36,377 bases of DNA from contig CAYIQG010000002.1 of NCBI GenBank assembly GCA_964365535.1, positions 1 through 36,377 of the forward strand. The letters run 5' to 3'. The stretch is from an uncultured Candidatus Saccharibacteria bacterium (lineage in GTDB: Bacteria > Patescibacteriota > Minisyncoccia > Phycocordibacterales > PALSA-1337). The notes under the pieces were generated by a model, which was not told where the DNA came from, made no database searches, and worked only from the letters and a program-made list of their open reading frames with translations. Both the position numbers and the translations under genes were made by a program. Below are positions 3,374 to 17,946 of this stretch, one piece after another (position 1 is the stretch's first letter; the number at the start of each line of letters is the position of its first letter).

Positions 3374-4678
<1,305 letters not shown>

Positions 4679-4726
4679 TTATTAAATGAATGTATAGTGA
4701 TTTCATTATATGCTATTCTTCTAATT

Positions 4727-5542
4727 ATGAAAACTAATAAAACTTCATGGGGCAATGTGGCCGAATGGTATGATGACTTGCTTTCGCAATCGTCGGATTC
4801 ATATCAAGAGAAAGTAATCTTGCCGAATTTACTTCGTATTATTGAGCCTAAGGGGGGTATGACGGTTGTTGACATCGCTTGTGGCCAAGGATATTTCTCC
4901 AGAGTTATTCAAGAAAAAGGCGCTAAAGTTATCGGTTGTGATATTTCGAAAGAATTGATTGATTTGGCAAAAGCTCATTCTCCAAAGGAAATTGAATATC
5001 ACACCGCGTCCGCGGATAATCTATCATTTATAAAAGACGCGACCGCCGATGTGGTCGTAATAATCCTTTCTATCCAAAATATTGAGAATATTGACGGTGT
5101 CTTCATTGAATGCACTCGAATCCTTAAATCAGACGGACGATTGGTTCTGGTTTTAAATCATCCGGCTTTTCGCATACCGAAAAGGTCGAGTTGGGAATGG
5201 GCTATTCAGCCAATTAGTTCATCAATAACTGGTGCGCCGAAGATTGGTTTACCGAAAGAGATCAATTTCCGTAGAATTGACGGCTATATGTCGGAAAGCC
5301 GCATTGAAATTGACATGACTCCTGGGGAGACAGACATTAAAAAGAAAAAAATAACAATTTCATTTCATAGATCGCTCCAAACATATTTCAAGTCCATGAA
5401 TAAATCCGGATTTGCCATAACTCACCTCGAGGAATGGATTTCCCATAAAAAAAGTGAGAAAGGAAAGCGGGCGCAGGAGGAAGATAGGATGAGGAAAGAA
5501 ATACCGATATTTTTGTGTTTGGAGGGGAGGAATATGCCATGA
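4727..5542 (+). CDS. Class I SAM-dependent methyltransferase
   Basis: Motif I VVDIACGQGYFS, and a methyltransferase-type-11-like fold (LKSDGRLVLV). I prefer the ATG at 4727 over the GTG at 4697 given in the ORF track. Confidence 0.8.
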   Translation: MKTNKTSWGNVAEWYDDLLSQSSDSYQEKVILPNLLRIIEPKGGMTVVDIACGQGYFSRVIQEKGAKVIGCDISKELIDLAKAHSPKEIEYHTASADNLSFIKDATADVVVIILSIQNIENIDGVFIECTRILKSDGRLVLVLNHPAFRIPKRSSWEWAIQPISSSITGAPKIGLPKEINFRRIDGYMSESRIEIDMTPGETDIKKKKITISFHRSLQTYFKSMNKSGFAITHLEEWISHKKSEKGKRAQEEDRMRKEIPIFLCLEGRNMP

Positions 5543-9335: not shown

Positions 9336-10573
9336 AGCAATCCGAACTGTTCACAAAAACTCGCCGAGAAGCGCCCAAGGACGAGGTGGCGAAGAACGCC
9401 CAGTTACTTATTCGCGCCGGATTTATTCATAAAGAAATGGCGGGAGTTTATTCATATTTACCCCTAGGGCTTCGGGTTATGAACAAGATAGTTGGAATAA
9501 TCAGAGAGGAAATGAACGCGATCGGCGGTCAAGAAGTTCATTTGACGGCTTTGCAGGACAAGAAACTTTGGGAGGCGACTGGCCGATGGGATGATAATGT
9601 TCTCGATATTTGGTTCAAGACAAAATTCAAGAATGACACGGAAGTAGGACTTGGTATTACTCATGAAGAACCGTTAACGGCTTTGATGAAAGCTCATATT
9701 CATTCGTACAAGGACTTGCCAGTTGCCGTCTACCAATTTCAGACAAAGTTTAGAAATGAAACACGGGCAAAGTCTGGCATTATGCGAGGACGCGAGTTTC
9801 TGATGAAAGATTTGTATTCTTTTAATGTAGACGCGAAAGCACATGAAATTTTCTATGAAAAAGCCAAACAGGCGTATGTCAATATTTTCAATCGTTTAGG
9901 GATTGGTGATAGAACTTATATTACTTTTGCCAGTGGCGGCTCATTCTCAAAATATTCTCATGAATTCCAGACCCTGACGGATGCCGGCGAAGATACTATC
10001 TTCGTTCATGAAGGTAAGAAAATAGCGATTAACAAAGAAGTCTTGAATGATGAAGTGCTCAAGGATTTAGATGTGAAAAGGTCCGACCTTATCGAGAAAA
10101 AAGCTGTTGAAGTGGGCAATATTTTCAATCTGGGCACGAAGTTTTCTGATGCGCTTGGTTTAAATTATAAGGATGAAAAAGGGGAAACAAAATCAGTCTA
10201 TATGGGTTGTTATGGTATTGGTCCGGGGCGAGTCATGGGCACTATCGCCGAGATTTATTCTGATGAGAAAGGTCTCGTTTGGCCGGAATCCGTGGCGCCG
10301 TTTTCTGTTCATTTGATTGCTTTGTTTGGTAAAGATGGAAAAGTAAAAATAGCGGCGGATGCTCTATATGAAAAACTTTCCAAGAAGGGAATAGAAGTCC
10401 TCTATGATGACCGTGATATGAGCGCCGGAGAAAAATTCTCCGACGCGGATTTGCTGGGCATTCCAAAGAGGTATGTGATAAGCGAAAAAACTCTCGCTAG
10501 TGATTCTGTGGAGGTGAAGGATAGGAAGACGGGGGAGGTGGGGAGAACGACTAAAGATGATATACTTGCGTAA
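9332..10573 (+). CDS. proS: Prolyl-tRNA synthetase, short bacterial-type without the INS editing domain
   Basis: N-terminus QLLIRAGFIHKEMAGVYSYLPLG, motif 2 FRNETRAKSGIMRGREFLMKD, motif 3 GCYGIGPGRV. Only about 130 aa lie between motifs 2 and 3, and the protein is 413 aa in total. Confidence 0.88.
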   Translation: MKQSELFTKTRREAPKDEVAKNAQLLIRAGFIHKEMAGVYSYLPLGLRVMNKIVGIIREEMNAIGGQEVHLTALQDKKLWEATGRWDDNVLDIWFKTKFKNDTEVGLGITHEEPLTALMKAHIHSYKDLPVAVYQFQTKFRNETRAKSGIMRGREFLMKDLYSFNVDAKAHEIFYEKAKQAYVNIFNRLGIGDRTYITFASGGSFSKYSHEFQTLTDAGEDTIFVHEGKKIAINKEVLNDEVLKDLDVKRSDLIEKKAVEVGNIFNLGTKFSDALGLNYKDEKGETKSVYMGCYGIGPGRVMGTIAEIYSDEKGLVWPESVAPFSVHLIALFGKDGKVKIAADALYEKLSKKGIEVLYDDRDMSAGEKFSDADLLGIPKRYVISEKTLASDSVEVKDRKTGEVGRTTKDDILA

Positions 10574-11208
10574 TGTTACCGAAAAAAGAAACTCAGAATA
10601 AACCATTAGTCTCAAACTCAGTCTATGTCTTTATAGACGCGTCAAATCTCTGGCAAGCTCAAAAATCGAAGGGACGTTTTCTTGATTATGAGAAGACAAT
10701 AGAATACATCAAGAATATCTATTCTGGAACTTCTGTAAAAGTCTACTATTACACTGCCTATCCAGCAACTGGTACGAGGACATATAGTCTTGATGGTAAG
10801 CATAAATTCTATACATTTCTGAAGAAAGGCCTAAAATTTGAAGTCAGGAAGAAAAAATTAAAAAGAATAAGTGTAATTGATGAGCATGGAGAAGCTATTC
10901 AAGAAAAGGGAAATATGGATGTGGAAATGACAATAGATGCGGTATATTTTGCGAAGAAGTACGATACAGCAGTTCTATTTTCAGGAGATTCAGATTTCTT
11001 AGCTCTTGTAAATTATCTGAAGAAAGGAGGAAAAAAGATTTACATATTCTCATCGAAAAATAATATTTCACAGGAGTTACGAACTGGCGCGGATGGTTAT
11101 ACTGATGTGCTCACAATTAAATCTGATATTATATGGGGCAGAGAATTGAAACGACGGGAAGAAATAAATAATAACGAAAGCAGCCCTCCGCGAGGAGGAC
11201 TGCTCTAG
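10573..11208 (+). CDS. NYN domain (LabA-like) protein
   Basis: VYVFIDASNLW, GNMDVEMTIDA and LFSGDSDF match the NYN/LabA acidic motifs. Its ATG overlaps the proS stop (TAATG). Confidence 0.8.
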   Translation: MLPKKETQNKPLVSNSVYVFIDASNLWQAQKSKGRFLDYEKTIEYIKNIYSGTSVKVYYYTAYPATGTRTYSLDGKHKFYTFLKKGLKFEVRKKKLKRISVIDEHGEAIQEKGNMDVEMTIDAVYFAKKYDTAVLFSGDSDFLALVNYLKKGGKKIYIFSSKNNISQELRTGADGYTDVLTIKSDIIWGRELKRREEINNNESSPPRGGLL

Positions 11209-11326
11209 GATGTAATACCCTATCAGTTATGGTTAACCGATAGACAGTGACTAGTATATATGGTTTCAATAATAAATCAAGGTATAGCTCTGGGGATAAC
11301 AAAGTAATACACAGGGACATATCATA

Positions 11327-11581
11327 TCAAAAATCTATCAAATTTTTCGTTTCCAAACCGAGCGCGTCCGCTATTTTGCGCAAATTCATCAAAGTAATAT
11401 TCTTCTCCGCGCGCTCAATCATGCCGATATAAGTCCTATGGAGTTTGGCTAACTCTCCGAGCTTTTCTTGTGATAATCCTCGCGCCACGCGTTCTTTTCT
11501 GATCTTTGCCCCGAGAAATATCAAGATTTTTTTGTCTAGAGTTTTTATGACTACAGTATGTAGTGTAGTCAAGTCTTGCAT
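11327..11581 (-). CDS. XRE-family HTH regulator resembling restriction-modification controller (C) proteins
   Basis: 84 aa. GLSQEKLGELAKLHRTYIGMIERAEKNITLMNLRKIADALG matches the C-protein pattern as I recall it from C.PvuII/C.Esp1396I (DRTYISGIERNSRNLTI...). An alternative TTG start 19 codons downstream is possible. Confidence 0.8.
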   Translation of the reverse strand: MQDLTTLHTVVIKTLDKKILIFLGAKIRKERVARGLSQEKLGELAKLHRTYIGMIERAEKNITLMNLRKIADALGLETKNLIDF

Positions 11582-11602
11582 TTGGTACTACAGACTATAG
11601 TT
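11549..11602. promoter_or_regulatory. Cluster of ACTACAG/CTGTAGT repeats and a C-box-like palindrome ACTATAGT around the HTH gene start
   Basis: GACTACAG (11549-56), TGTAGT (11559-64), TGTAGTC (11564-70), ACTACAG (11587-93) and GACTATAGTT (11593-11602). They lie between the minus-strand TATAAT (11611-11606) and the first codons of the gene. Confidence 0.35.
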
Positions 11603-11642
11603 AGCATTATATTTCTTGTGTTGAAATGTGCCTCGCGTGTCA

Positions 11643-11672
11643 TTGACAATGTATTCATATATCTGGTAGATT
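11643..11672 (+). promoter_or_regulatory. Promoter TTGACA-N18-(TGg)TAGATT for the large surface-protein operon
   Basis: TTGACA at 11643-48, and extended -10 TGGTAGATT at 11664-72. Confidence 0.5.
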
Positions 11673-11750
11673 TTACGTCAATTGAAATATTATTATTTAC
11701 CATGGGTCATTTTTAGATTTTGTCAAGTAATTATCAGCTATTTATCAATT

Positions 11751-14700
11751 ATGTCAATAAAACATAACAAAACACTTCTCAAATCATTTGTAGGAACGGT
11801 CGTAGTAATTCTGGGTGTTATGAGTGTTGCAAGTGCAAATATGAATGATAGTATCATGACAACCTCAACTAAACCCTATATGACTCCTCAAGCGCAAACT
11901 ACGCCACTTACTCAATTTCAAACTACGGAATTTACGGAAACGGCCACAACCACAATAACTACTCCGTTTAAGCTAACCAATGAAAGTGGCAATGATGCTG
12001 GCACAGAAATCAACACTACAGAGACAAATTCAAATATTTCACTAGCTGGAATGTTATATGCTGGACCAGCTCAAAGTCGTTCTATTGTATTTCCACGAGC
12101 GAATTATGTTGGTCAACATGTTTATCATCAACTATTCGAGACTGTAAACGATTTTACTGCTTTAGGCGGAACAATAGCGATTGATACAGTGAATGTCTTG
12201 GCTGGCATTTCATCAATTGCTTTCACTGGAACGATTGGAACTTCAAGATATATTGATATTGCAGGGTTAGATCTTGACTTAGAAGGAACGCAAGGAATGT
12301 TAAGAGTTTATATTCCAGCTGGAAACGGTACGACTGCTTATTCGACTATAAGTAAGATTTGGATAAGACTCATCAATAATAATGGAACATCATATCTTTA
12401 TAATCTATGGAGTCCTGCGAATACAGCAGAAGCAGGTTGGTACGAATTACCCTTTCTTCCTGACGCAGATTATAGAAGTATACCAGCACAGTATATACCA
12501 AAAATAACCAATATTACTGAAATTAGAATAGGCTATGATGTTTCTAGTGCCAGTAATGTTCCGGTGGTCAATTTTGATGAATTACTATTTTTCGAATCCA
12601 GAAATAAGAAACCACTTTTACTTCTGTATGCTGATGGCACTTATAGAAGACAAAATGATTTAGCTAATTATTATCGAAGTCTGAATCTTGCTAGCACTAC
12701 TGTTTCAGGAAAACCGACATTTGTTTTTGCTACTTCTCCTGGTCACACGGACTCATCTATAGGAATGACTTTTATGACACTTGGTCAATTACAAGAACAA
12801 ATCAAGGCTGGCAATCAAAATGCTATTTATGCTGATATTGGATATCCTACTCAATGGGTTGGTTATAGTACAACGCAGAAAACAAATAATGTCGCAACTA
12901 TACAAGATTGGTGGCAATCAAATGGATTTCCTACTCCTAAATCACTTTCAATTTCAGGTGTAAATGGCGTGCTTTCAAGCGATAATCTTGCTTTCTGGGG
13001 AAGATATATCAATCTAGTATTAGGAGGAAATTCGTATGCTGGTGAACGATGGGTTAATACTTTATATAATCCTAGTTATAATCGGATTACTCAATTTACA
13101 GATGTAAATGGAATGATGCAATCAACCGCTGAATTTGACCCGACTTCAGGAATCGTAAAAATTAGCGGAAGCGGAGACGCATATTGGTCCGTAATGTATC
13201 CTGTAAAGTTTACATCAACAGGGACTTTGCCTACCAGCGTTCCCCAGATTACCTCCAGCACGATTTATTGGTTCAGGAATATTGATCAGATGTGGGGTCG
13301 CATTTATCCCACGGCGACTGACGCAATGAATAAAACCAATCAAATTACCTTTTCTAATATTGGAACTGGTTCGCATTATATTGTCACAAAAAAACAAAAT
13401 AATGATGAAGATTTTGGTATAAAAGTCGTCTCTTGGTTGAAAGCAAAAGGTGTATGGGTTCAAGCTATGCACATAAATAGCGATGATGAATTAGTTGTTG
13501 GAAAGTTTGAGGCAGATGTATTCGCTAATATGGCAAATGCTGGAGAAATACAATTTGCTAATACTGATGAATATATCTCTGGAGCTGGAGTCATTGAAGA
13601 TACAACTTCTTGCGGTACGGGATTGGATTGTACTGAAACGAGCAATGGCATAATGATTGCTGGAGATAGTGCACAAGCAGATGGTTTAACTAAAGGATTA
13701 GCGACATTCAATTCAACTAATTTTTCTGATAATGGAAGTGGCGTGATAAATACGGTACAAAATATTGATCAGTCATCTAATCTAGTTTTAGGTGGATTGA
13801 GTCTCCGTGCAATTTCTCCACCAAGTTCGGCACCAAAAGCAACAACGATGTCAAATATTGCTCAAAATCACAGTTTTGAACTTGCCAGTTCTGCCAATTG
13901 GGGACAGACTTTTGCTTCATGGTATAATCAAGCCGGTAATGGAACGATTACAGATGAGACATCTTTTGTCCATTTCGGTAGTCATGCGGCAAAATTAACG
14001 ACTAACACTGGAGCATCTGATATTTATTTTAAGACTGTTATTGAACCGGGGACAACTTATTACTGGTCATTCTACACTAGAGGAGATGGAACATATCAGG
14101 GTAGATACAAAATCTATGACCAAACAAATGGTGCCGATATTGTTAGTACGACAAATACTGGTGTTACGGAAACATCTTATACTAGAGTCTCGGGTTCATT
14201 TGTCGCTTCTGTCGGAAGCAGAGTAATATATTTCATATTTTATTCTCCTTCTGGAACTTCTGGTCCTCGAGTAGCTTATTTTGACGATGTGTATATCGGG
14301 ACACATCCATCAGGAAATATTGCCGATGGCACATATTATTATACTGTAACTGCGTTAAATGGTTCAAACGAATCGGCTACGAGCACGGAAAGTCCTGCGA
14401 TTACTTTATCGAATATAGGAGGTAATGGTATGATTCTTCTTTCGTGGGCAACAACAACTGGGGCAACATCATACAAAGTTTATCGCACGACAACATCACA
14501 ATCCTATGGGGCCACATCATATTTAGGTAATCCTTCAACTACATATTATGAAGATAGTTCAGTTTCTCCTACAGCGGGAATGCCACCGTTGACGCCAACA
14601 GATTTTATTTCGCTTAGCGGAACCGCCACAAGTACATTCGGGAATGGTATAAATTTATCTGCTGGATGTTTTGCGATAAATAATGTTTGTATAAGCGGTG

Positions 14701-15374
14701 GCAGTGGTAGTAATCTCGTCGTAAATCTCGGAGTAACCGGAATAAGCGCGGTGCAAACATTTGCCTCTGCGGATAATACTTTTGAAAACGGTTGGAAATG
14801 GGTTTTTGATGTTACTGTTCCGACAAATAAAACTGCTTTGAAAATGAAATTCGCCGACTGGACGAAAGGTTCGGATGTTATTCCAGCCGAAGGTAATATT
14901 CGTATTTATTCGGCGCAATCTTCAAATGCCTATGATTCTCTCCATGCGATCACTATAAATACTGCCGGTACATACAGTGATGAAATGGATCTCAATCCTA
15001 ATATTGATCTCGATGCGATTTCAAAATCAGGCAGACAAATCCAAATAATTGTTGAAGCGCGTGTTCCAGAAAGCTCTGCCGGCGGATCTTATTCTACGAG
15101 TTATGGAATAAAATCTATTCCTGACACTATTGTGCCAGTCATAACATGGGTAGATCCGGCACCAATTTCAGGAGGAACTGCTCTCTCAAGTACCCAATTA
15201 AATGCGATAGCGTCTGTTGATGGAACATTTTCCTACACTCCAGCTAAGGGGACAATTCTACCAGTAGGCTCAAACGAACTTTCAGTTGGATTTACTCCTG
15301 CGGATAGCATAAATTACTCTTCTGTTAGTAAGAAAGTTACAATTGATGTTATTCTCAACATCTATGGATGGTGA
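11751..15374 (+). CDS. Large secreted multidomain surface protein (Thr-rich linker, CBM4_9-like module, Fn3, C-terminal Ig-like repeat)
   Basis: Signal peptide KSFVGTVVVILGVMSVASA after the ATG at 11751 (the track start 11682 is a TTG). CBM4_9-like NHSFE...W...YYWSFYTRGDG...AYFDDVYI. Fn3-like DGTYYYTVTALNG...YKVYRTT. C-terminal ITWVDPAPISGGTALSSTQLNA...FTPADSINY repeat. Confidence 0.75.
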   Translation: MSIKHNKTLLKSFVGTVVVILGVMSVASANMNDSIMTTSTKPYMTPQAQTTPLTQFQTTEFTETATTTITTPFKLTNESGNDAGTEINTTETNSNISLAGMLYAGPAQSRSIVFPRANYVGQHVYHQLFETVNDFTALGGTIAIDTVNVLAGISSIAFTGTIGTSRYIDIAGLDLDLEGTQGMLRVYIPAGNGTTAYSTISKIWIRLINNNGTSYLYNLWSPANTAEAGWYELPFLPDADYRSIPAQYIPKITNITEIRIGYDVSSASNVPVVNFDELLFFESRNKKPLLLLYADGTYRRQNDLANYYRSLNLASTTVSGKPTFVFATSPGHTDSSIGMTFMTLGQLQEQIKAGNQNAIYADIGYPTQWVGYSTTQKTNNVATIQDWWQSNGFPTPKSLSISGVNGVLSSDNLAFWGRYINLVLGGNSYAGERWVNTLYNPSYNRITQFTDVNGMMQSTAEFDPTSGIVKISGSGDAYWSVMYPVKFTSTGTLPTSVPQITSSTIYWFRNIDQMWGRIYPTATDAMNKTNQITFSNIGTGSHYIVTKKQNNDEDFGIKVVSWLKAKGVWVQAMHINSDDELVVGKFEADVFANMANAGEIQFANTDEYISGAGVIEDTTSCGTGLDCTETSNGIMIAGDSAQADGLTKGLATFNSTNFSDNGSGVINTVQNIDQSSNLVLGGLSLRAISPPSSAPKATTMSNIAQNHSFELASSANWGQTFASWYNQAGNGTITDETSFVHFGSHAAKLTTNTGASDIYFKTVIEPGTTYYWSFYTRGDGTYQGRYKIYDQTNGADIVSTTNTGVTETSYTRVSGSFVASVGSRVIYFIFYSPSGTSGPRVAYFDDVYIGTHPSGNIADGTYYYTVTALNGSNESATSTESPAITLSNIGGNGMILLSWATTTGATSYKVYRTTTSQSYGATSYLGNPSTTYYEDSSVSPTAGMPPLTPTDFISLSGTATSTFGNGINLSAGCFAINNVCISGGSGSNLVVNLGVTGISAVQTFASADNTFENGWKWVFDVTVPTNKTALKMKFADWTKGSDVIPAEGNIRIYSAQSSNAYDSLHAITINTAGTYSDEMDLNPNIDLDAISKSGRQIQIIVEARVPESSAGGSYSTSYGIKSIPDTIVPVITWVDPAPISGGTALSSTQLNAIASVDGTFSYTPAKGTILPVGSNELSVGFTPADSINYSSVSKKVTIDVILNIYGW

Positions 15375-15399
15375 ATAAATAATATATTTTAATTATTCC

Positions 15400-16044
15400 A
15401 TGACAAGAATTACATTAAAAACATCAATACTACTTTCATTATTTATAAGTATTAATATTACATATGCCTCTGAAGTCACCGGCACCCTAACTACTGGCAT
15501 TAGCGCCAGTGTTGGTACGGCTATGAACGGGGTAGTTATCAGTATTCCTATCGCAAATCCATCTACTGGAGTCTATATCTCAGCGCAAAGCGTAACTTTG
15601 AGTGCGGAAGGGTCATCTAATATTCATTACACAACTGATGGAGCAACACCGACATGTACAACCGGAAATATTTATTCAAGCCCCATTTTGGTTAATTCGT
15701 CATTGGTAATTGAAGCTATCTCGTGCTATCCGAGTAACAGAACTTCAACAGTAGTATCATATTTGTACGGAATAAATATCCCGACAAGTTCTTCATTTTT
15801 AAGTTCGAGTAGTGGTGGAAGCGGCGAAAGCTCAAGTAGTGGTAGTGGAGGAGGTAGCGGTAATACCATTCAAATCATAGGTAAAGTTGATACCAGTAAC
15901 GATGGCAAAGTTAATATTCTTGATTTTGTTACTCTAATGGCAAATTGGAATAGGACCGGTTCGAACAATATTGCTGATTTTAATAGCGATGGCAAAGTAG
16001 ATATATTAGATTTTGTACTGTTAATGGCGAATTGGACGAAATAA
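15400..16044 (+). CDS. Secreted protein with a chitobiase/Fn3-associated-type domain and a C-terminal dockerin (two Ca-binding repeats)
   Basis: Signal peptide ending ITYASE. NIHYTTDGATPTCTTGNIYSSPILV. Ser/Gly linker. Duplicated DTSNDGKVNILDFVTLMANW / DFNSDGKVDILDFVLLMANW (15889-16035). Confidence 0.75.
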   Translation: MTRITLKTSILLSLFISINITYASEVTGTLTTGISASVGTAMNGVVISIPIANPSTGVYISAQSVTLSAEGSSNIHYTTDGATPTCTTGNIYSSPILVNSSLVIEAISCYPSNRTSTVVSYLYGINIPTSSSFLSSSSGGSGESSSSGSGGGSGNTIQIIGKVDTSNDGKVNILDFVTLMANWNRTGSNNIADFNSDGKVDILDFVLLMANWTK

Positions 16045-16049
16045 ATAAT

Positions 16050-16793
16050 ATGAAAAATAACACCCAAAAATTAGTGATAGCAAGTATTACCGCTATTATT
16101 GGCGCATTAATGTTCGTTGCGCCGGTCTTGGCCGCGACGACGGCAACGCTTTCACCCGCTACAGTAAATGTAACAGCGGGAAGGCAGTTCAGCATAGCTG
16201 TATCGGTCAATCCGCAGGGAACCGCTAATTATGCCGAAAAAATAGAGATTAATTATCCAGCCAGCATATTGGAAGTAAAGTCATTTACTCTTGGAAATAA
16301 CTGGATGGCCCTAACGCAACCCGGCTATGATTCTACCGATAATATTAATGGCATATTGATCAGAACAGCTGGATATCCCGCGGGACTTTCAAGTGCTACT
16401 GCATTTGGAACTGTAACTTTCTACGCCAAAAAATCAGGAAATGGAACAATTAAAATAGGGAGTAACTCTCTTGCATTTCAAGCAAGCGCGCAAAGCACTG
16501 TAATCGGAAATGCCATAGTATTCACTGTAACCGCGCCAGTGGTAGCTCCTAAACCATCAACAATTGTAGAAAACACACCGGTTACTTTAGAGACAGAACA
16601 GGCAGTAGTAGAAGAATCAGCCCTATCAACAGAGCCGACAAATCAAGTTGAACCAATATCTCAAGTTGCCGCGGTCAGTACCGCAGTACCACAGGGAAAT
16701 GGAAACACATGGATTTGGATTCTGGTCGTAATTACAATTCTCGCAATCATAGGTTGGGGAATATATGTATCACGTAAGAATAGAGAGAACTAA
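16050..16793 (+). CDS. Cohesin-domain protein with N-terminal signal peptide and C-terminal TM anchor
   Basis: ATLSPATVNVTAGRQFSIAVSVNP...AEKIEINYPASILEV...GTVTFYAKKSGNGTIKIG resembles cohesin modules. Pro/Thr/Glu-rich stalk, then WIWILVVITILAIIGWGIYVSRKNR. I prefer the ATG at 16050 over the TTG at 16032. Confidence 0.6.
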   Translation: MKNNTQKLVIASITAIIGALMFVAPVLAATTATLSPATVNVTAGRQFSIAVSVNPQGTANYAEKIEINYPASILEVKSFTLGNNWMALTQPGYDSTDNINGILIRTAGYPAGLSSATAFGTVTFYAKKSGNGTIKIGSNSLAFQASAQSTVIGNAIVFTVTAPVVAPKPSTIVENTPVTLETEQAVVEESALSTEPTNQVEPISQVAAVSTAVPQGNGNTWIWILVVITILAIIGWGIYVSRKNREN

Positions 16794-16803
16794 ACAAAAG
16801 AGA

Positions 16804-16844
16804 AGAAAAACTCGAGAATATATTGTCTCGAGTTTTTCTTTTTG
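16804..16844 (+). terminator. Strong intrinsic terminator closing the surface-protein operon
   Basis: 13-bp perfect stem AGAAAAACTCGAG/CTCGAGTTTTTCT with a 10-nt loop, then TTTTG. Confidence 0.8.
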
Positions 16845-16869
16845 TATTTGCTGAAAATTATGGTAAGGT
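16842..16869 (+). promoter_or_regulatory. mreB promoter TTGTAT-N16-(TGg)TAAGGT, -10 element 6 nt from the ATG
   Basis: TGGTAAGGT at 16861-16869, then ACAGCT, then ATG at 16876. Confidence 0.4.
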
Positions 16870-16875
16870 ACAGCT

Positions 16876-17946
16876 ATGCTTACCTTCAAGGAAAGAAAAG
16901 ACAATATTCTCGGGCGTTTTTCTAATGATATCGGCATAGACCTTGGCACCGCGAACACGCTGGTTTATGTGCGTGGCAAGGGTATTGTCGTGAATGAGCC
17001 GTCGGTCGTGGCGGTCAATCAGAAAACCGGACAGGTTGTCGCCGTCGGCAAAACCGCGAAAGATATGCTGGGGAGAACGCCGGCGCATATCGTCGCCGTG
17101 CGTCCGCTCGTGGATGGAGTAATCTCCGACTTCGAAGTGACGGAGGAAATGCTTTCATATTTTATGAGGCGCGCCGGCGAATTTATGCCGAAAAAGTTTT
17201 TGGGGCCGAGAGTGGTGGTGGGCGTGCCGTCGGGCGTGACGAATGTGGAAGTTAGAGCCGTGCGCGACGCCACGAAGAACGCGGGCGCGCGCGAAGTCTA
17301 TATTATCGAACAGCCGATGGCCGGCGCCATTGGAATCCGTTTGCCGGTGCATGACCCGGTGGGTAGTATGATTATAGATATCGGCGGCGGCACGACTGAT
17401 ATTGCCGTTATTTCCCTTGGCGGCATTGTCCGTTCCAAGAATCTGAAAATCGCTGGCGATAAGCTCGACAATGATATAATTTCCTATATCCGCAATGAAT
17501 TCAAGATTCTGATCGGGGAGACAACCGCCGAGCAAGTGAAAATGGAAGTCGGTTTGGTTATCGCCGGCGAACCGGTGGAGACCACCATTCGAGGCCGAGA
17601 CCTCATCACCGGCTTGCCGCGCGAAGTTGTCATCACTGATTCCGATATTCGCGAAGCGATGGAGCAATCTATAAATTCAATCATAGAATCAACGAAAGAA
17701 GTATTGGAGATGACGCCGCCGGAAATACTTTCCGATATTATGAAACGGGGAATACATTTGGTCGGCGGCGGAGCTCTCATTCAAGGGCTCGATCAACTAC
17801 TTCGTGAAATGATAAAAATCCCCATAACTATTGCCGATGACCCTCTGTCAGCCGTTGCGCGCGGTGCTGGAATTATTTTGGAAGATTTGGATAAATTTCG
17901 AATTGTTCTCATAGAAAGCGAAGATGATATACCTTCAGCAAAATAA
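16876..17946 (+). CDS. mreB: Rod shape-determining protein MreB
   Basis: DIGIDLGTANTLVY, an actin-like ATPase pattern throughout, GGGALIQGLD. Confidence 0.97.
   Translation: MLTFKERKDNILGRFSNDIGIDLGTANTLVYVRGKGIVVNEPSVVAVNQKTGQVVAVGKTAKDMLGRTPAHIVAVRPLVDGVISDFEVTEEMLSYFMRRAGEFMPKKFLGPRVVVGVPSGVTNVEVRAVRDATKNAGAREVYIIEQPMAGAIGIRLPVHDPVGSMIIDIGGGTTDIAVISLGGIVRSKNLKIAGDKLDNDIISYIRNEFKILIGETTAEQVKMEVGLVIAGEPVETTIRGRDLITGLPREVVITDSDIREAMEQSINSIIESTKEVLEMTPPEILSDIMKRGIHLVGGGALIQGLDQLLREMIKIPITIADDPLSAVARGAGIILEDLDKFRIVLIESEDDIPSAK

Follow-up and report, generated by a model that had tools for sequence, protein, structure and literature searches.

A candidate three-gene cohesin–dockerin cassette for cell-surface display at a variable proS–mreB junction

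Between proS and mreB, the window (the whole stretch of 36,377 nucleotides analyzed here) carries an accessory block whose core we interpret, with moderate confidence, as a three-gene cohesin–dockerin cassette that displays a variable adhesin on the cell surface and has been inserted at a proS/mreB hotspot. In our model, the product of the last gene would be a type I membrane protein with a single cohesin held extracellularly by a flexible, ~55-residue stalk. The middle gene would encode a small secreted adaptor, whose two-loop, calcium-binding C-terminal dockerin could plug into the anchor cohesin. The giant product of the first gene, which is dockerin-free and predicted to be secreted, would be recruited via a module that we call domX, most likely to the CHB_HEX_C_1 β-sandwich of the adaptor. 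Its long, orphan and strain-variable remainder would then form the displayed working surface, probably as an adhesin that binds a host cell or polysaccharide. The three genes would share one promoter and one terminator, and a divergent, controller-like regulator would act at a conserved operator next to its own start codon. The features of the block are as follows.

10573–11208, plus strand: NYN (LabA-like) nuclease-domain gene (Pfam NYN, E 1.8e-25; PADLOC NYN, E 6.5e-12)
11177–11206, no strand assigned: GC-rich hairpin of 13 pairs (7 GC) at the NYN 3′ end, between the convergent NYN and HTH genes
11327–11581, minus strand: Xre/HTH_3 regulator, 84 aa, divergent from the giant gene (Pfam HTH_3, E 1.8e-13)
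11550–11601, no strand assigned: two copies of ACTACAnnnTrTAGT (11550–11564 and 11587–11601) straddling the HTH start codon
11588–11606, no strand assigned: operator-like element CTACAGACTATAGTTAGCA, 19 nt, 7–25 nt upstream of the HTH start codon
11643–11672, plus strand: promoter-like site TTGACA-18-TAGATT with TG, 79 nt upstream of the giant ATG (a consensus match only, 10 of 12 positions)
11751–15374, plus strand: giant protein, predicted secreted, 1207 aa, Thr/Ser/Gly-rich, with a signal-like N-terminal segment (residues 1–29)
14727–15128, plus strand: domX, ~134 aa (giant residues 993–1126), a conserved module, mostly β-strand by sequence prediction
15129–15371, plus strand: C-terminal Ig-like repeat domain (giant residues 1127–1207), with a weak Pfam Ig_CFAP65_4th/HYDIN-like match (E 8e-4)
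15400–16044, plus strand: adaptor protein, 214 aa, with signal-like N-terminus, CHB_HEX_C_1/Fn3_assoc β-sandwich, Ser/Gly linker and C-terminal dockerin
16050–16793, plus strand: anchor protein, 247 aa, with N-terminal signal/TM helix, one cohesin domain, stalk, C-terminal TM helix and basic tail
16800–16843, plus strand: intrinsic terminator ending the block, 18-bp stem with T-rich tail

All four genes of the original prediction (regulator, giant protein, dockerin and cohesin) are present as open reading frames, and the structural genes are separated by the expected gaps of 25 nt (15375–15399) and 5 nt (16045–16049). The giant gene starts at TTG 11682 in the list of open reading frames; ATG 11751, the start in public gene calls, yields the 1207-residue product with its signal-like N-terminus. 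For the cohesin gene, public calls and homologues make ATG 16050 the most likely start, over TTG 16032. The left boundary, by contrast, had to be redrawn. The proS–NYN pair had been taken as the core flank, but the NYN gene, whose ATG overlaps the proS stop codon (TAATG), has no homologue at the proS–mreB junction in 80 related loci. It is part of the inserted DNA, which does not imply a separate functional tie to the cassette, and the accessory edge moves to the proS stop codon (10573). The true block, as inserted DNA at a variable hotspot, probably extends from about 10574 to 16860. On the right, a strong terminator was correctly anticipated: its RNA has a folding energy of −23.7 kcal/mol (z = −6.7), a value that no sequence in a set of 200 shuffles attained. 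A consensus scan of the 32 nt separating this terminator from the mreB ATG gave no mreB promoter. The hairpin between the NYN and HTH genes may terminate transcription from either side.

Judged from sequence, the short gaps, one terminator and one upstream promoter-like site fit a single operon, and the three structural genes would then be read as one transcript. The only RNA evidence consists of two short metatranscriptome contigs, one within the giant gene (14424–14576) and one within the cohesin gene (16396–16608); both have a depth of 2, could be DNA carry-over and are a hint of expression only.

The gene order frr–M50–proS–mreB–mreC–mreD–pbp2–greA–aspS is conserved in relatives. Of 61 related species, 48 have proS and mreB as immediate neighbors (median gap 96 bp), among them L011, the closest relative in which the junction can be read; in the window, the gap is 6305 bp and includes the NYN gene. 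This synteny comparison bears out the accessory status proposed for the block. In further species, the same position is occupied by unrelated cargo, which includes secreted proteins, a DNA methylase, a membrane protein, an ORF that looks dehydrogenase-like by eye only, and toxin–antitoxin genes around the cassette of locus L015. Composition sets the block apart in part. Its GC content is 0.382 versus 0.421 for the remaining window, and tetranucleotide distance reaches its maximum at 11001–16000 (z = 2.7). The expected AT-richness holds for the giant, dockerin and cohesin genes (GC3 of 0.25, 0.29 and 0.34, respectively, with 0.316 for the NYN gene and 0.39–0.55 for most neighboring genes) but not for the HTH gene, whose GC3 of 0.46 is not deviant. 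With the same site empty in relatives and an atypical composition, the block has the marks of a genomic island. Those of a mobile element (integrase or transposase, attachment site, flanking repeats) were not found in it, and a renewed search at or in the block for tRNAs, Rfam matches, flanking direct repeats and integrases or recombinases gave none, the same outcome as in the original prediction for integrase, repeats and tRNA. Loci L006 and L008 are the only ones with recombinases or a transposase close to the cassette.

By sequence comparison, the block is not a one-off: it belongs to a large and conserved family of Paceibacterota (CPR) cassettes, which comprises at least 197 protein clusters and 323 confirmed metagenomic stretches. 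A dockerin-ending ORF directly precedes the cohesin–TM gene in 70 of the 71 loci with upstream sequence, mostly at a distance of 4–5 nt, and a large secreted-protein ORF lies upstream of the dockerin gene in 39 of the 41 loci with enough sequence. Some loci encode large proteins (817 and 1745 aa) that carry the dockerin themselves. Cassettes are found between proS and mreB, upstream of proS, between ftsW and murG and upstream of ftsW; other neighbors include restriction–modification and other defense-type genes, a transposase, recombinases, rpoD and ychF, among others. About 9 of ~30 long loci place the cassette beside the cell-wall/cell-shape clusters proS–mreB and ftsW–murG. Cassette GC lies below that of the flanks in some genomes and above it in others (for example, 0.463 versus 0.336 at L139). 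Cohesin identity does not track core-gene identity (ProS 77% and cohesin 36% for L015; 71% and 59% for L044), and for L004 the cassette is 56–60% and the core genes are 50–62% identical to those of the window. Our literature search gave no description of this cassette in Paceibacterota; the recurrence of the same three-gene layout at different genome sites across the group is, as far as we found, previously undescribed. The organism from which the window derives is an ultra-small groundwater bacterium.

The anchor protein itself has no Pfam match, so the cohesin label required evidence from homologues and from structure, both of which uphold it. PF00963 is matched by 23 of 44 anchor homologues. 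The AlphaFold model of the window protein (mean pLDDT 81.3, and >90 across most of residues 30–161) conforms to the cohesin fold, a nine-stranded, jelly-roll β-sandwich, and its top ~30 Foldseek matches in the PDB are cohesins of types I, II and III, the best being 6kgc_A (E 9e-9, target TM-score 0.70). The cohesin spans approximately residues 30–161 and is followed by a disordered stalk of ~55 residues and a TM helix at ~217–240. In the adaptor, the β-sandwich occupies residues 54–120 (CHB_HEX_C_1, Pfam E 1.2e-11). The dockerin assignment also stands: approximately residues 158–214 match Pfam Dockerin_1 (E 2.7e-6, above the gathering score) and contain two calcium-binding loops, DTSNDGKVNILD and DFNSDGKVDILD, 29 residues apart. 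A direct repeat in the DNA (15888–15949 and 15975–16036) is the duplicated dockerin segment, in keeping with the two copies of an EF-hand-like calcium loop followed by a helix that characterize dockerins. All three structural proteins begin with a basic N-terminus and then a hydrophobic segment, signal-like features from which the export proposed for them is again predicted. The dockerin and cohesin of the window may bind each other specifically and in a calcium-dependent manner; at the level of genes, the pair is adjacent in 70 of 71 loci.

Residues 30–992 of the giant protein have no detectable relative, retrieving only the protein itself among 5.8 billion clusters, and no protein-family or PDB match. 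A profile search at E values up to 10 recognized no adhesin, enzyme or carbohydrate-binding domain in the giant protein, no dockerin is present and a single-sequence AlphaFold model is unusable (pLDDT 31.7). The C-terminal Ig-like stretch is matched by 8812 library proteins, mostly as tandem repeats. The adjoining domX shares 54–70% identity with the N-terminal domains that first-gene products carry in L004, L006 and L008. In 12 further loci it forms the mature N-terminus or the extreme C-terminus, and in other cassettes it always lies at one end of the large protein; it shows no similarity to Pfam families, PDB structures or the cohesin profile. Large proteins of the cassettes divide into a domX class, to which the window protein belongs, and a domY class, and both end modules are unannotated. 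Proteins with domX accompany CHB_HEX_C_1 adaptors at 11 of 13 loci and those with domY accompany other adaptors at 21 of 22 (Fisher p = 2e-6, uncorrected for phylogeny), a co-variation that may simply reflect shared ancestry. We only infer that the giant protein joins the cohesin–dockerin pair.

A divergent promoter region and a dedicated regulator had also been proposed. The 169-nt divergent intergenic region does contain the promoter-like TTGACA-18-TAGATT site, and the regulator is present and divergent, with homologues of 52–56% identity placed equally in L004 and L015. It accompanies a minority of cassettes only (the window, L004/L091, L094 and L015), however, and its absence from most others counts against our model. 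Its best profile match is to controller (C) proteins of restriction–modification systems (PADLOC Control_protein PDLC03665; E 4.3e-21, 73 bits, full length), a model that overlaps general Xre/HTH_3 proteins and has no curated cut-off. Across the window, L004 and L015, 18 of the 19 positions of the operator-like element are invariant (with G or T at the other), in the midst of intergenic DNA that has otherwise diverged. L004 and L015, but not the window, have a second, palindromic copy (GCTAAyTATAGTTAGC) 3′ of the promoter-like site. ACTACAnnnTrTAGT gives 4 matches versus 0.10 expected, and none of 100 shuffles reaches 4. The regulator could act through these sites.

Several alternatives deserve consideration. 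The cassette could be an old, vertically inherited part of the envelope that was moved among a few positions by rearrangement rather than acquired horizontally, its odd composition stemming from a Thr/Ser/Gly/Asn bias and weak codon selection. This history would suit the very wide spread of the family, the absence of mobility genes from the window's block and the placement of roughly a third of long loci beside cell-wall or cell-shape clusters, and, for L004, the equal divergence of cassette and core genes from those of the window would also be expected if the cassette had descended vertically and been relocated. We nevertheless consider it unlikely: the junction is empty in most relatives, including L011, cohesin identity does not follow core identity monotonically, and cassette GC3 deviates both upward and downward among genomes, which a fixed gene-class bias would not explain.

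It is also doubtful, in our estimate decidedly so, that the cohesin–dockerin pair displays the small adaptor only, with the giant protein acting independently and domX and domY serving as wall or S-layer modules in the manner of SLH or CWB2. Wall-anchoring domains, such as those of SLH and CWB2 proteins, are typically conserved end modules on surface proteins that otherwise vary, and the terminal position of domX resembles this pattern. Cassettes often adjoin peptidoglycan genes, and loci in which the large protein itself bears the dockerin need no third partner. These points have to be set against the retention of the three-gene order in nearly all loci, the co-variation of end-module type with adaptor type and the lack of resemblance between domX and any known wall-binding family. 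A minimal cellulosome-like degradative complex, in which the giant protein would be a surface-held, polysaccharide-active enzyme digesting host or environmental glycans, strikes us as very improbable. Cohesin–dockerin pairs are best known from cellulosomes, and the CHB_HEX_C_1 and Fn3_assoc domains of the adaptor are common in glycosidases. An essential dockerin protein of Saccharibacteria, for which its authors speculate about host-glycan targeting (PMC10633639), can be counted on the same side. Nonetheless, the giant protein has neither a catalytic or carbohydrate-binding domain at E up to 10 nor a PDB match, and the three structural proteins together contain one cohesin, one dockerin and no glycoside hydrolase or CBM domain. 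The multi-cohesin scaffoldin, dockerin-bearing glycoside hydrolases and cellulose-binding module of a cellulosome were not found. We continue to favor a surface-display cassette.

The putative regulator resembles C.PvuII and C.Esp1396I in being a small HTH_3 protein of ~80 aa with palindromic sites directly upstream of its own start codon, an arrangement that leaves little or no leader and is also seen in the PvuII system (PMC2175313). In contrast to C proteins, it is divergent from its putative target genes rather than co-transcribed with them, and the block has no methylase, endonuclease or other restriction–modification genes. Moreover, the conserved element of the window and its relatives (CTACAkACTATAGTTAGCA/GCTAAyTATAGTTAGC) does not match the published C-box (GACT-N3-AGTC-N4-GACT-N3-AGTC).

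The proposed capture of an adaptor's dockerin by a cell-bound cohesin, so that the adaptor carries functional subunits, parallels the anchoring scaffoldins of cellulosomes (SdbA, OlpB and OlpA of C. thermocellum; ScaE of R. flavefaciens), and the type I cohesins of OlpA and OlpC (3ul4 and 4dh2) are among the structural matches of the window anchor. The window anchor, however, uses a transmembrane helix rather than SLH domains or a sortase, has one cohesin with no multi-cohesin scaffoldin or detectable enzymes, and its adaptor–cargo link would use domX and CHB_HEX_C_1 rather than a second cohesin–dockerin type. Likenesses are also found in non-cellulosomal cohesin and dockerin modules, which occur singly in bacteria and archaea without cellulose degradation (Peer et al. 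2009, PMC3035643; ANME archaea, PMC9012536). The window likewise has single modules and a dockerin with two calcium-binding loops, its cohesin fold resembles the Archaeoglobus fulgidus cohesin (PDB 2xdh; target TM-score 0.70), and a role in surface assembly or cell–cell contact has been proposed there too. Cassettes of the window type differ in that the genes for the pair consistently lie side by side, the window cohesin has a C-terminal transmembrane helix as its anchor, and a third, large protein with an unannotated terminal module is encoded upstream. Finally, giant surface proteins with adhesin-like domains have been described in CPR and Omnitrophota, where some dockerins are proposed to be adhesins (PMC10066038; bioRxiv 10.1101/2023.11.21.568195). 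Like these, the window protein is large, poorly annotated, predicted to be secreted and from the realm of ultra-small, host-dependent bacteria. By contrast, it is of modest size (1207 aa), its dockerin resides on a separate small adaptor, and it is encoded in a defined, putative operon together with a cognate cohesin.

Three genes of the block between proS and mreB recur elsewhere as a cassette of fixed order. We used the window's domains to scan the surroundings of three homologues and of 80 metagenomic loci, the latter retrieved with the cohesin alignment. An ORF ending in a dockerin lies directly 5' of the gene for a transmembrane (TM) cohesin in 70 of the 71 loci where >200 nt of upstream sequence is available, usually at a spacing of 4-5 nt, and a large ORF (200 to >2000 aa) directly precedes the dockerin gene in 39 of the 41 loci with room for one. 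The dockerin proteins are usually 190-240 aa long (range 153 to 1745 aa). One reading, which we offer tentatively and consider possible but rather doubtful, is that these genes form an exchangeable three-part surface display in Paceibacterota. A TM cohesin would serve as anchor, a dockerin protein as adaptor, and a large variable protein would dock via a terminal module (domX or domY) matched to the N-terminal domain of the adaptor, in a second docking code that does not rely on cohesin; genomes would exchange whole cassettes, changing the targets to which host-dependent cells adhere. The original prediction of a regulated, accessory surface-attachment block is in part supported by these results, and extended; the function inferred for the cassette is plausible.

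Principal features of the cassette and its counterparts
Giant gene, likeliest start ATG 11751: first structural gene; 1207-aa protein with a signal-like N-terminus, MSIKHNKTLLKSFVGTVVVILGVMSVASA; public gene calls and homologues agree
Cohesin gene, likeliest start ATG 16050: anchor protein of 247 aa; public gene calls and homologues agree
domX, giant-protein residues 993-1126 (~134 residues): shares 54-70% identity with the N-terminal domain of large proteins in L004, L006 and L008, loci of other genomes or metagenomes
domY, C-terminal, ~170 aa: present in 22 loci, including L015; obtained by clustering the termini of all upstream proteins
L015, 12021-12491 and 17348-17749: accessory genes flanking its block, a DUF4258/DUF2283 pair and a PemK-like toxin

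All ORFs named in the original prediction are present in the window, and its cohesin and dockerin labels are borne out. The window's cohesin protein has no Pfam match even at E = 10; it has at least 197 homologous clusters, and 23 of 44 aligned homologues match PF00963. When the AlphaFold model built from the homologue alignment (mean pLDDT 81.3; >90 across the β-sandwich) was compared with the PDB by Foldseek, type I, II and III cohesins made up the best ~30 matches, among them the non-cellulosomal one of Archaeoglobus. The cohesin fold, a disordered stretch (residues 177-216) and a strongly hydrophobic C-terminal helix (residues 218-246) together make this protein a membrane-anchored cohesin on a stalk. 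Pfam assigns Dockerin_1 with CHB_HEX_C_1/Fn3_assoc, as well as HTH_3 and NYN, within the block, and ProS and MreB on its flanks. A phage or defence origin of the structural proteins was rejected, as none of the three has a PHROG or PADLOC match; the only such matches in the block, both to generic families, are those of the NYN and HTH proteins.

The large proteins of the cassettes share with the window's giant protein a C-terminal Ig-like repeat and domX. The repeat is hugely common, and its 8812 library matches swamped a HMMER search with the whole giant protein, leaving it uninformative on residues 30-992. That segment returned only its own protein in a word-index search and has neither a family nor a PDB match. 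CBM4_9-like, Fn3-like and deacetylase-like stretches noted by eye were dropped after Pfam searches to E 10 and PDB searches came back empty, and the single-sequence AlphaFold model of the giant protein (mean pLDDT 31.7) is unusable. In each of 12 loci domX occupies a protein end, directly following the signal peptide in some and closing the C-terminus in others. It resembles neither a Pfam family nor a PDB sequence nor the cohesin profile, and the idea that it is a divergent cohesin was rejected at a profile-profile probability of 0.1%; domY likewise lacks a Pfam match. The modules co-vary with the adaptor: 11 of 13 domX cases have a CHB_HEX_C_1 adaptor, and 21 of 22 domY cases a non-CHB adaptor (Fisher p = 2e-6, uncorrected for shared ancestry), which is suggestive of a matched pair of terminal module and adaptor. 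Within the giant gene, strain-variant contigs cluster at 14120-14953 (a 241-nt stretch in sequencing run X4, for instance, has 15 differences). There, 15 of 26 changed codons are non-synonymous, a hint that selection on the C-terminal half of the protein, domX included, is relaxed or diversifying.

The divergent HTH gene is present, as predicted, although its dedication to the cassette is narrower than the claim implied: homologues of the regulator accompany only the cassettes of the window, L004/L091, L094 and L015. Also as proposed, the divergent region (169 nt) has a promoter-like site, TTGACA-18-TAGATT. An element, CTACAkACTATAGTTAGCA, lies 7-25 nt 5' of the regulator start codon and is invariant at 18 of 19 positions among the window, L004 and L015, where the surrounding DNA has otherwise diverged. 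In L004 and L015 a second, palindromic copy, GCTAAyTATAGTTAGC, follows the promoter-like site and precedes the large gene; no second copy occurs in the window within 3 mismatches. We infer that the regulator would autoregulate and control the divergent operon. Its best profile match, over the full length, is the controller-protein family of restriction-modification systems (E 4.3e-21), from which it differs in that the element departs from the published C-box (PMC2175313) and that no restriction-modification genes lie at the window block.

We also surveyed the proS-mreB junction by mapping the window's proteins onto 80 loci, each holding a ProS homologue from a different species. The gene order frr-M50-proS-mreB-mreC-mreD-pbp2-greA-aspS is widely kept, and proS and mreB lie ≤300 bp apart in 48 of the 61 species with both genes on one contig (median 96 bp). 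In the closest relative with a readable junction, L011 (ProS 82%, MreB 93% identical), the gap is 123 bp; in the window it is 6305 bp. More than 1 kb of cargo occupies the junction in 8 species and is unrelated to the window block in 7 of them, comprising secreted 245-aa proteins, a large membrane protein, a DNA methylase with a partner ORF, and a dehydrogenase-like ORF (by eye only). The sole species with an analogous block, L015, encodes a divergent HTH protein (52% identical), a 945-aa Ig-rich surface protein, a 210-aa dockerin protein and a 251-aa cohesin-TM protein (36% identical to the window's). The block is therefore not in identical context in all relatives, and the empty junction of most species together with the varied cargo of others marks the junction as a hotspot and the block as accessory by position. 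The predicted placement of accessory DNA between core genes stands, except that NYN is not its core left edge: no relative surveyed has an NYN counterpart at the junction, so NYN belongs to the inserted DNA.

Several further observations concern this region. At 10571-10575 (TAATG) the stop codon of proS and the start codon of NYN overlap, so the apparently acquired NYN is now translationally coupled to a core aminoacyl-tRNA synthetase gene. The ~245-aa secreted cargo proteins contain Cys and lack Pfam matches; besides L015, the junction inserts in question include those of L039 (~11340-12280), L016, L017 and L030, with the DNA methylase and its partner ORF among the cargo. In the closest relative by ProS (L010, 89%), proS is followed by a valyl-tRNA synthetase-like gene (3429-4841; by eye from the translation) and not by mreB, so local synteny is broken even among close relatives.

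The intergenic gaps of 25 and 5 nt and the strong terminator are as originally described, the latter at 16800-16843 with an 18-bp stem (-23.7 kcal/mol, z = -6.7 against shuffles). A scan found no mreB promoter, and no Rfam family was found at the block. Over 25 nt, the left arm of the terminator (16804-16828) shows 80% complementarity to codons 8-16 of mreB (16899-16923), and the terminator's loop and right arm are thus similar to the 5' coding sequence of mreB; this likeness could be chance or an alternative pairing that influences mreB expression. Just 5' of the mreB ATG, contig depth doubles over ~40 nt (16854-16895, run X1). The motif TTATGGTAAGGT is also found upstream of mreB in L011; related genomes in the sample may have a short conserved leader or ribosome-binding element in common here.

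The block differs from its surroundings in composition. It is more AT-rich, as predicted (GC 0.382 versus 0.421), GC3 is 0.25-0.34 in the three structural genes and 0.32 in NYN against 0.39-0.55 in most neighbours, and tetranucleotide deviation reaches the window maximum at 11001-16000. Cassette GC3 is below that of the flanks in the window, L004, L015, L008, L138 and L155 and above it in L094, L139 and L159; because the deviation runs both ways, a fixed gene-class bias does not explain it. Position also varies. Cassettes lie between proS and mreB (window, L015), just upstream of these genes (L044, L096), between ftsW and murG (L004/L091), upstream of ftsW-murG (L129, L148, L155), or beside restriction-modification and further defence-type genes, rpoD, ychF, a Mu Gam-like gene and others. 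The identity of cohesins to the window's copy is decoupled from that of core genes: ProS and cohesin are 77% and 36% identical in L015, 71% and 59% in L044, and 55% and 51% in L096. Together, this decoupling, the varied sites and the two-way GC3 deviation point to exchange or relocation of cassettes. The L004 values (MurG 62%, cohesin 60%) also fit vertical descent with relocation. Transposase and recombinase genes lie near the L006 and L008 cassettes; at the window's cassette we found no mobility gene or marking repeat and, as the original prediction stated, neither a tRNA nor a flanking direct repeat (the repeat search gave short chance matches only).

The L006 (3337-7141) and L008 (1349-7119) cassettes lie directly downstream of defence-type loci, with transposase, resolvase or integrase genes near. 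These loci are an OLD-family ATPase with a UvrD-type helicase, which adjoins the L006 cassette and resembles the known Gabija pair, and a type III-like restriction-modification system with Mrr. About 9 of ~30 long loci (L004, L091, L129, L139, L148, L154/L155, L044, L096, L015) have cassettes beside or inside cell-wall or cell-shape clusters (ftsW-murG, proS-mreB), a frequency far above random placement in a ~1 Mb genome. The locations may have a common ancestry, or the cassette may be functionally linked to growth of the envelope.

Depth over the block equals that of its flanks in DNA runs of the same study, so the block is not an assembly chimera. A Logan contig of run X1 apparently joining 10545 to 16832 was rejected as a block-less allele, being absent in X2-X5 and having a loose end at 16832 that is not proS-like; it probably derives from a related low-abundance organism. 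Short assembled RNA contigs over 14424-14576 and 16396-16608, from one metatranscriptome only, are a weak sign of expression. Matches to the window come from Hainich groundwater metagenome contigs (0.1 and 0.2 µm filter fractions) encoding an identical giant protein, and the nearest relatives in a species-level genome collection are Paceibacterota, Taylorbacteria or Patescibacteria MAGs (ProS 63-89% identical), which places the source in the Parcubacteria/Paceibacterota group of CPR bacteria.

Attachment to other cells is the presumed lifestyle of CPR bacteria; the attaching molecules are mostly unknown, and most members are unculturable. A conserved, compact operon of membrane cohesin, dockerin adaptor and fast-evolving giant protein offers three small modules for E. 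coli expression and binding tests, and the cassette is a candidate for what sets host or substrate specificity, one that could be tracked in metagenomes. If domX and domY are docking modules, they would add new protein-protein connectors to the cohesin-dockerin toolkit. More broadly, the proS-mreB junction, with its varied accessory genes, is a practical marker site for gene flux in reduced genomes. In the searchable literature, whose coverage is incomplete, we found neither a fixed three-gene cassette with a TM cohesin nor the domX and domY terminal modules, nor an account of the distribution and positional variability of such cassettes in Paceibacterota. The cohesin-dockerin principle itself is known, including non-cellulosomal cases (PMC3035643, PMC9012536), and dockerin-bearing proteins have been noted in Saccharibacteria (PMC10633639) and Omnitrophota (PMC10066038).
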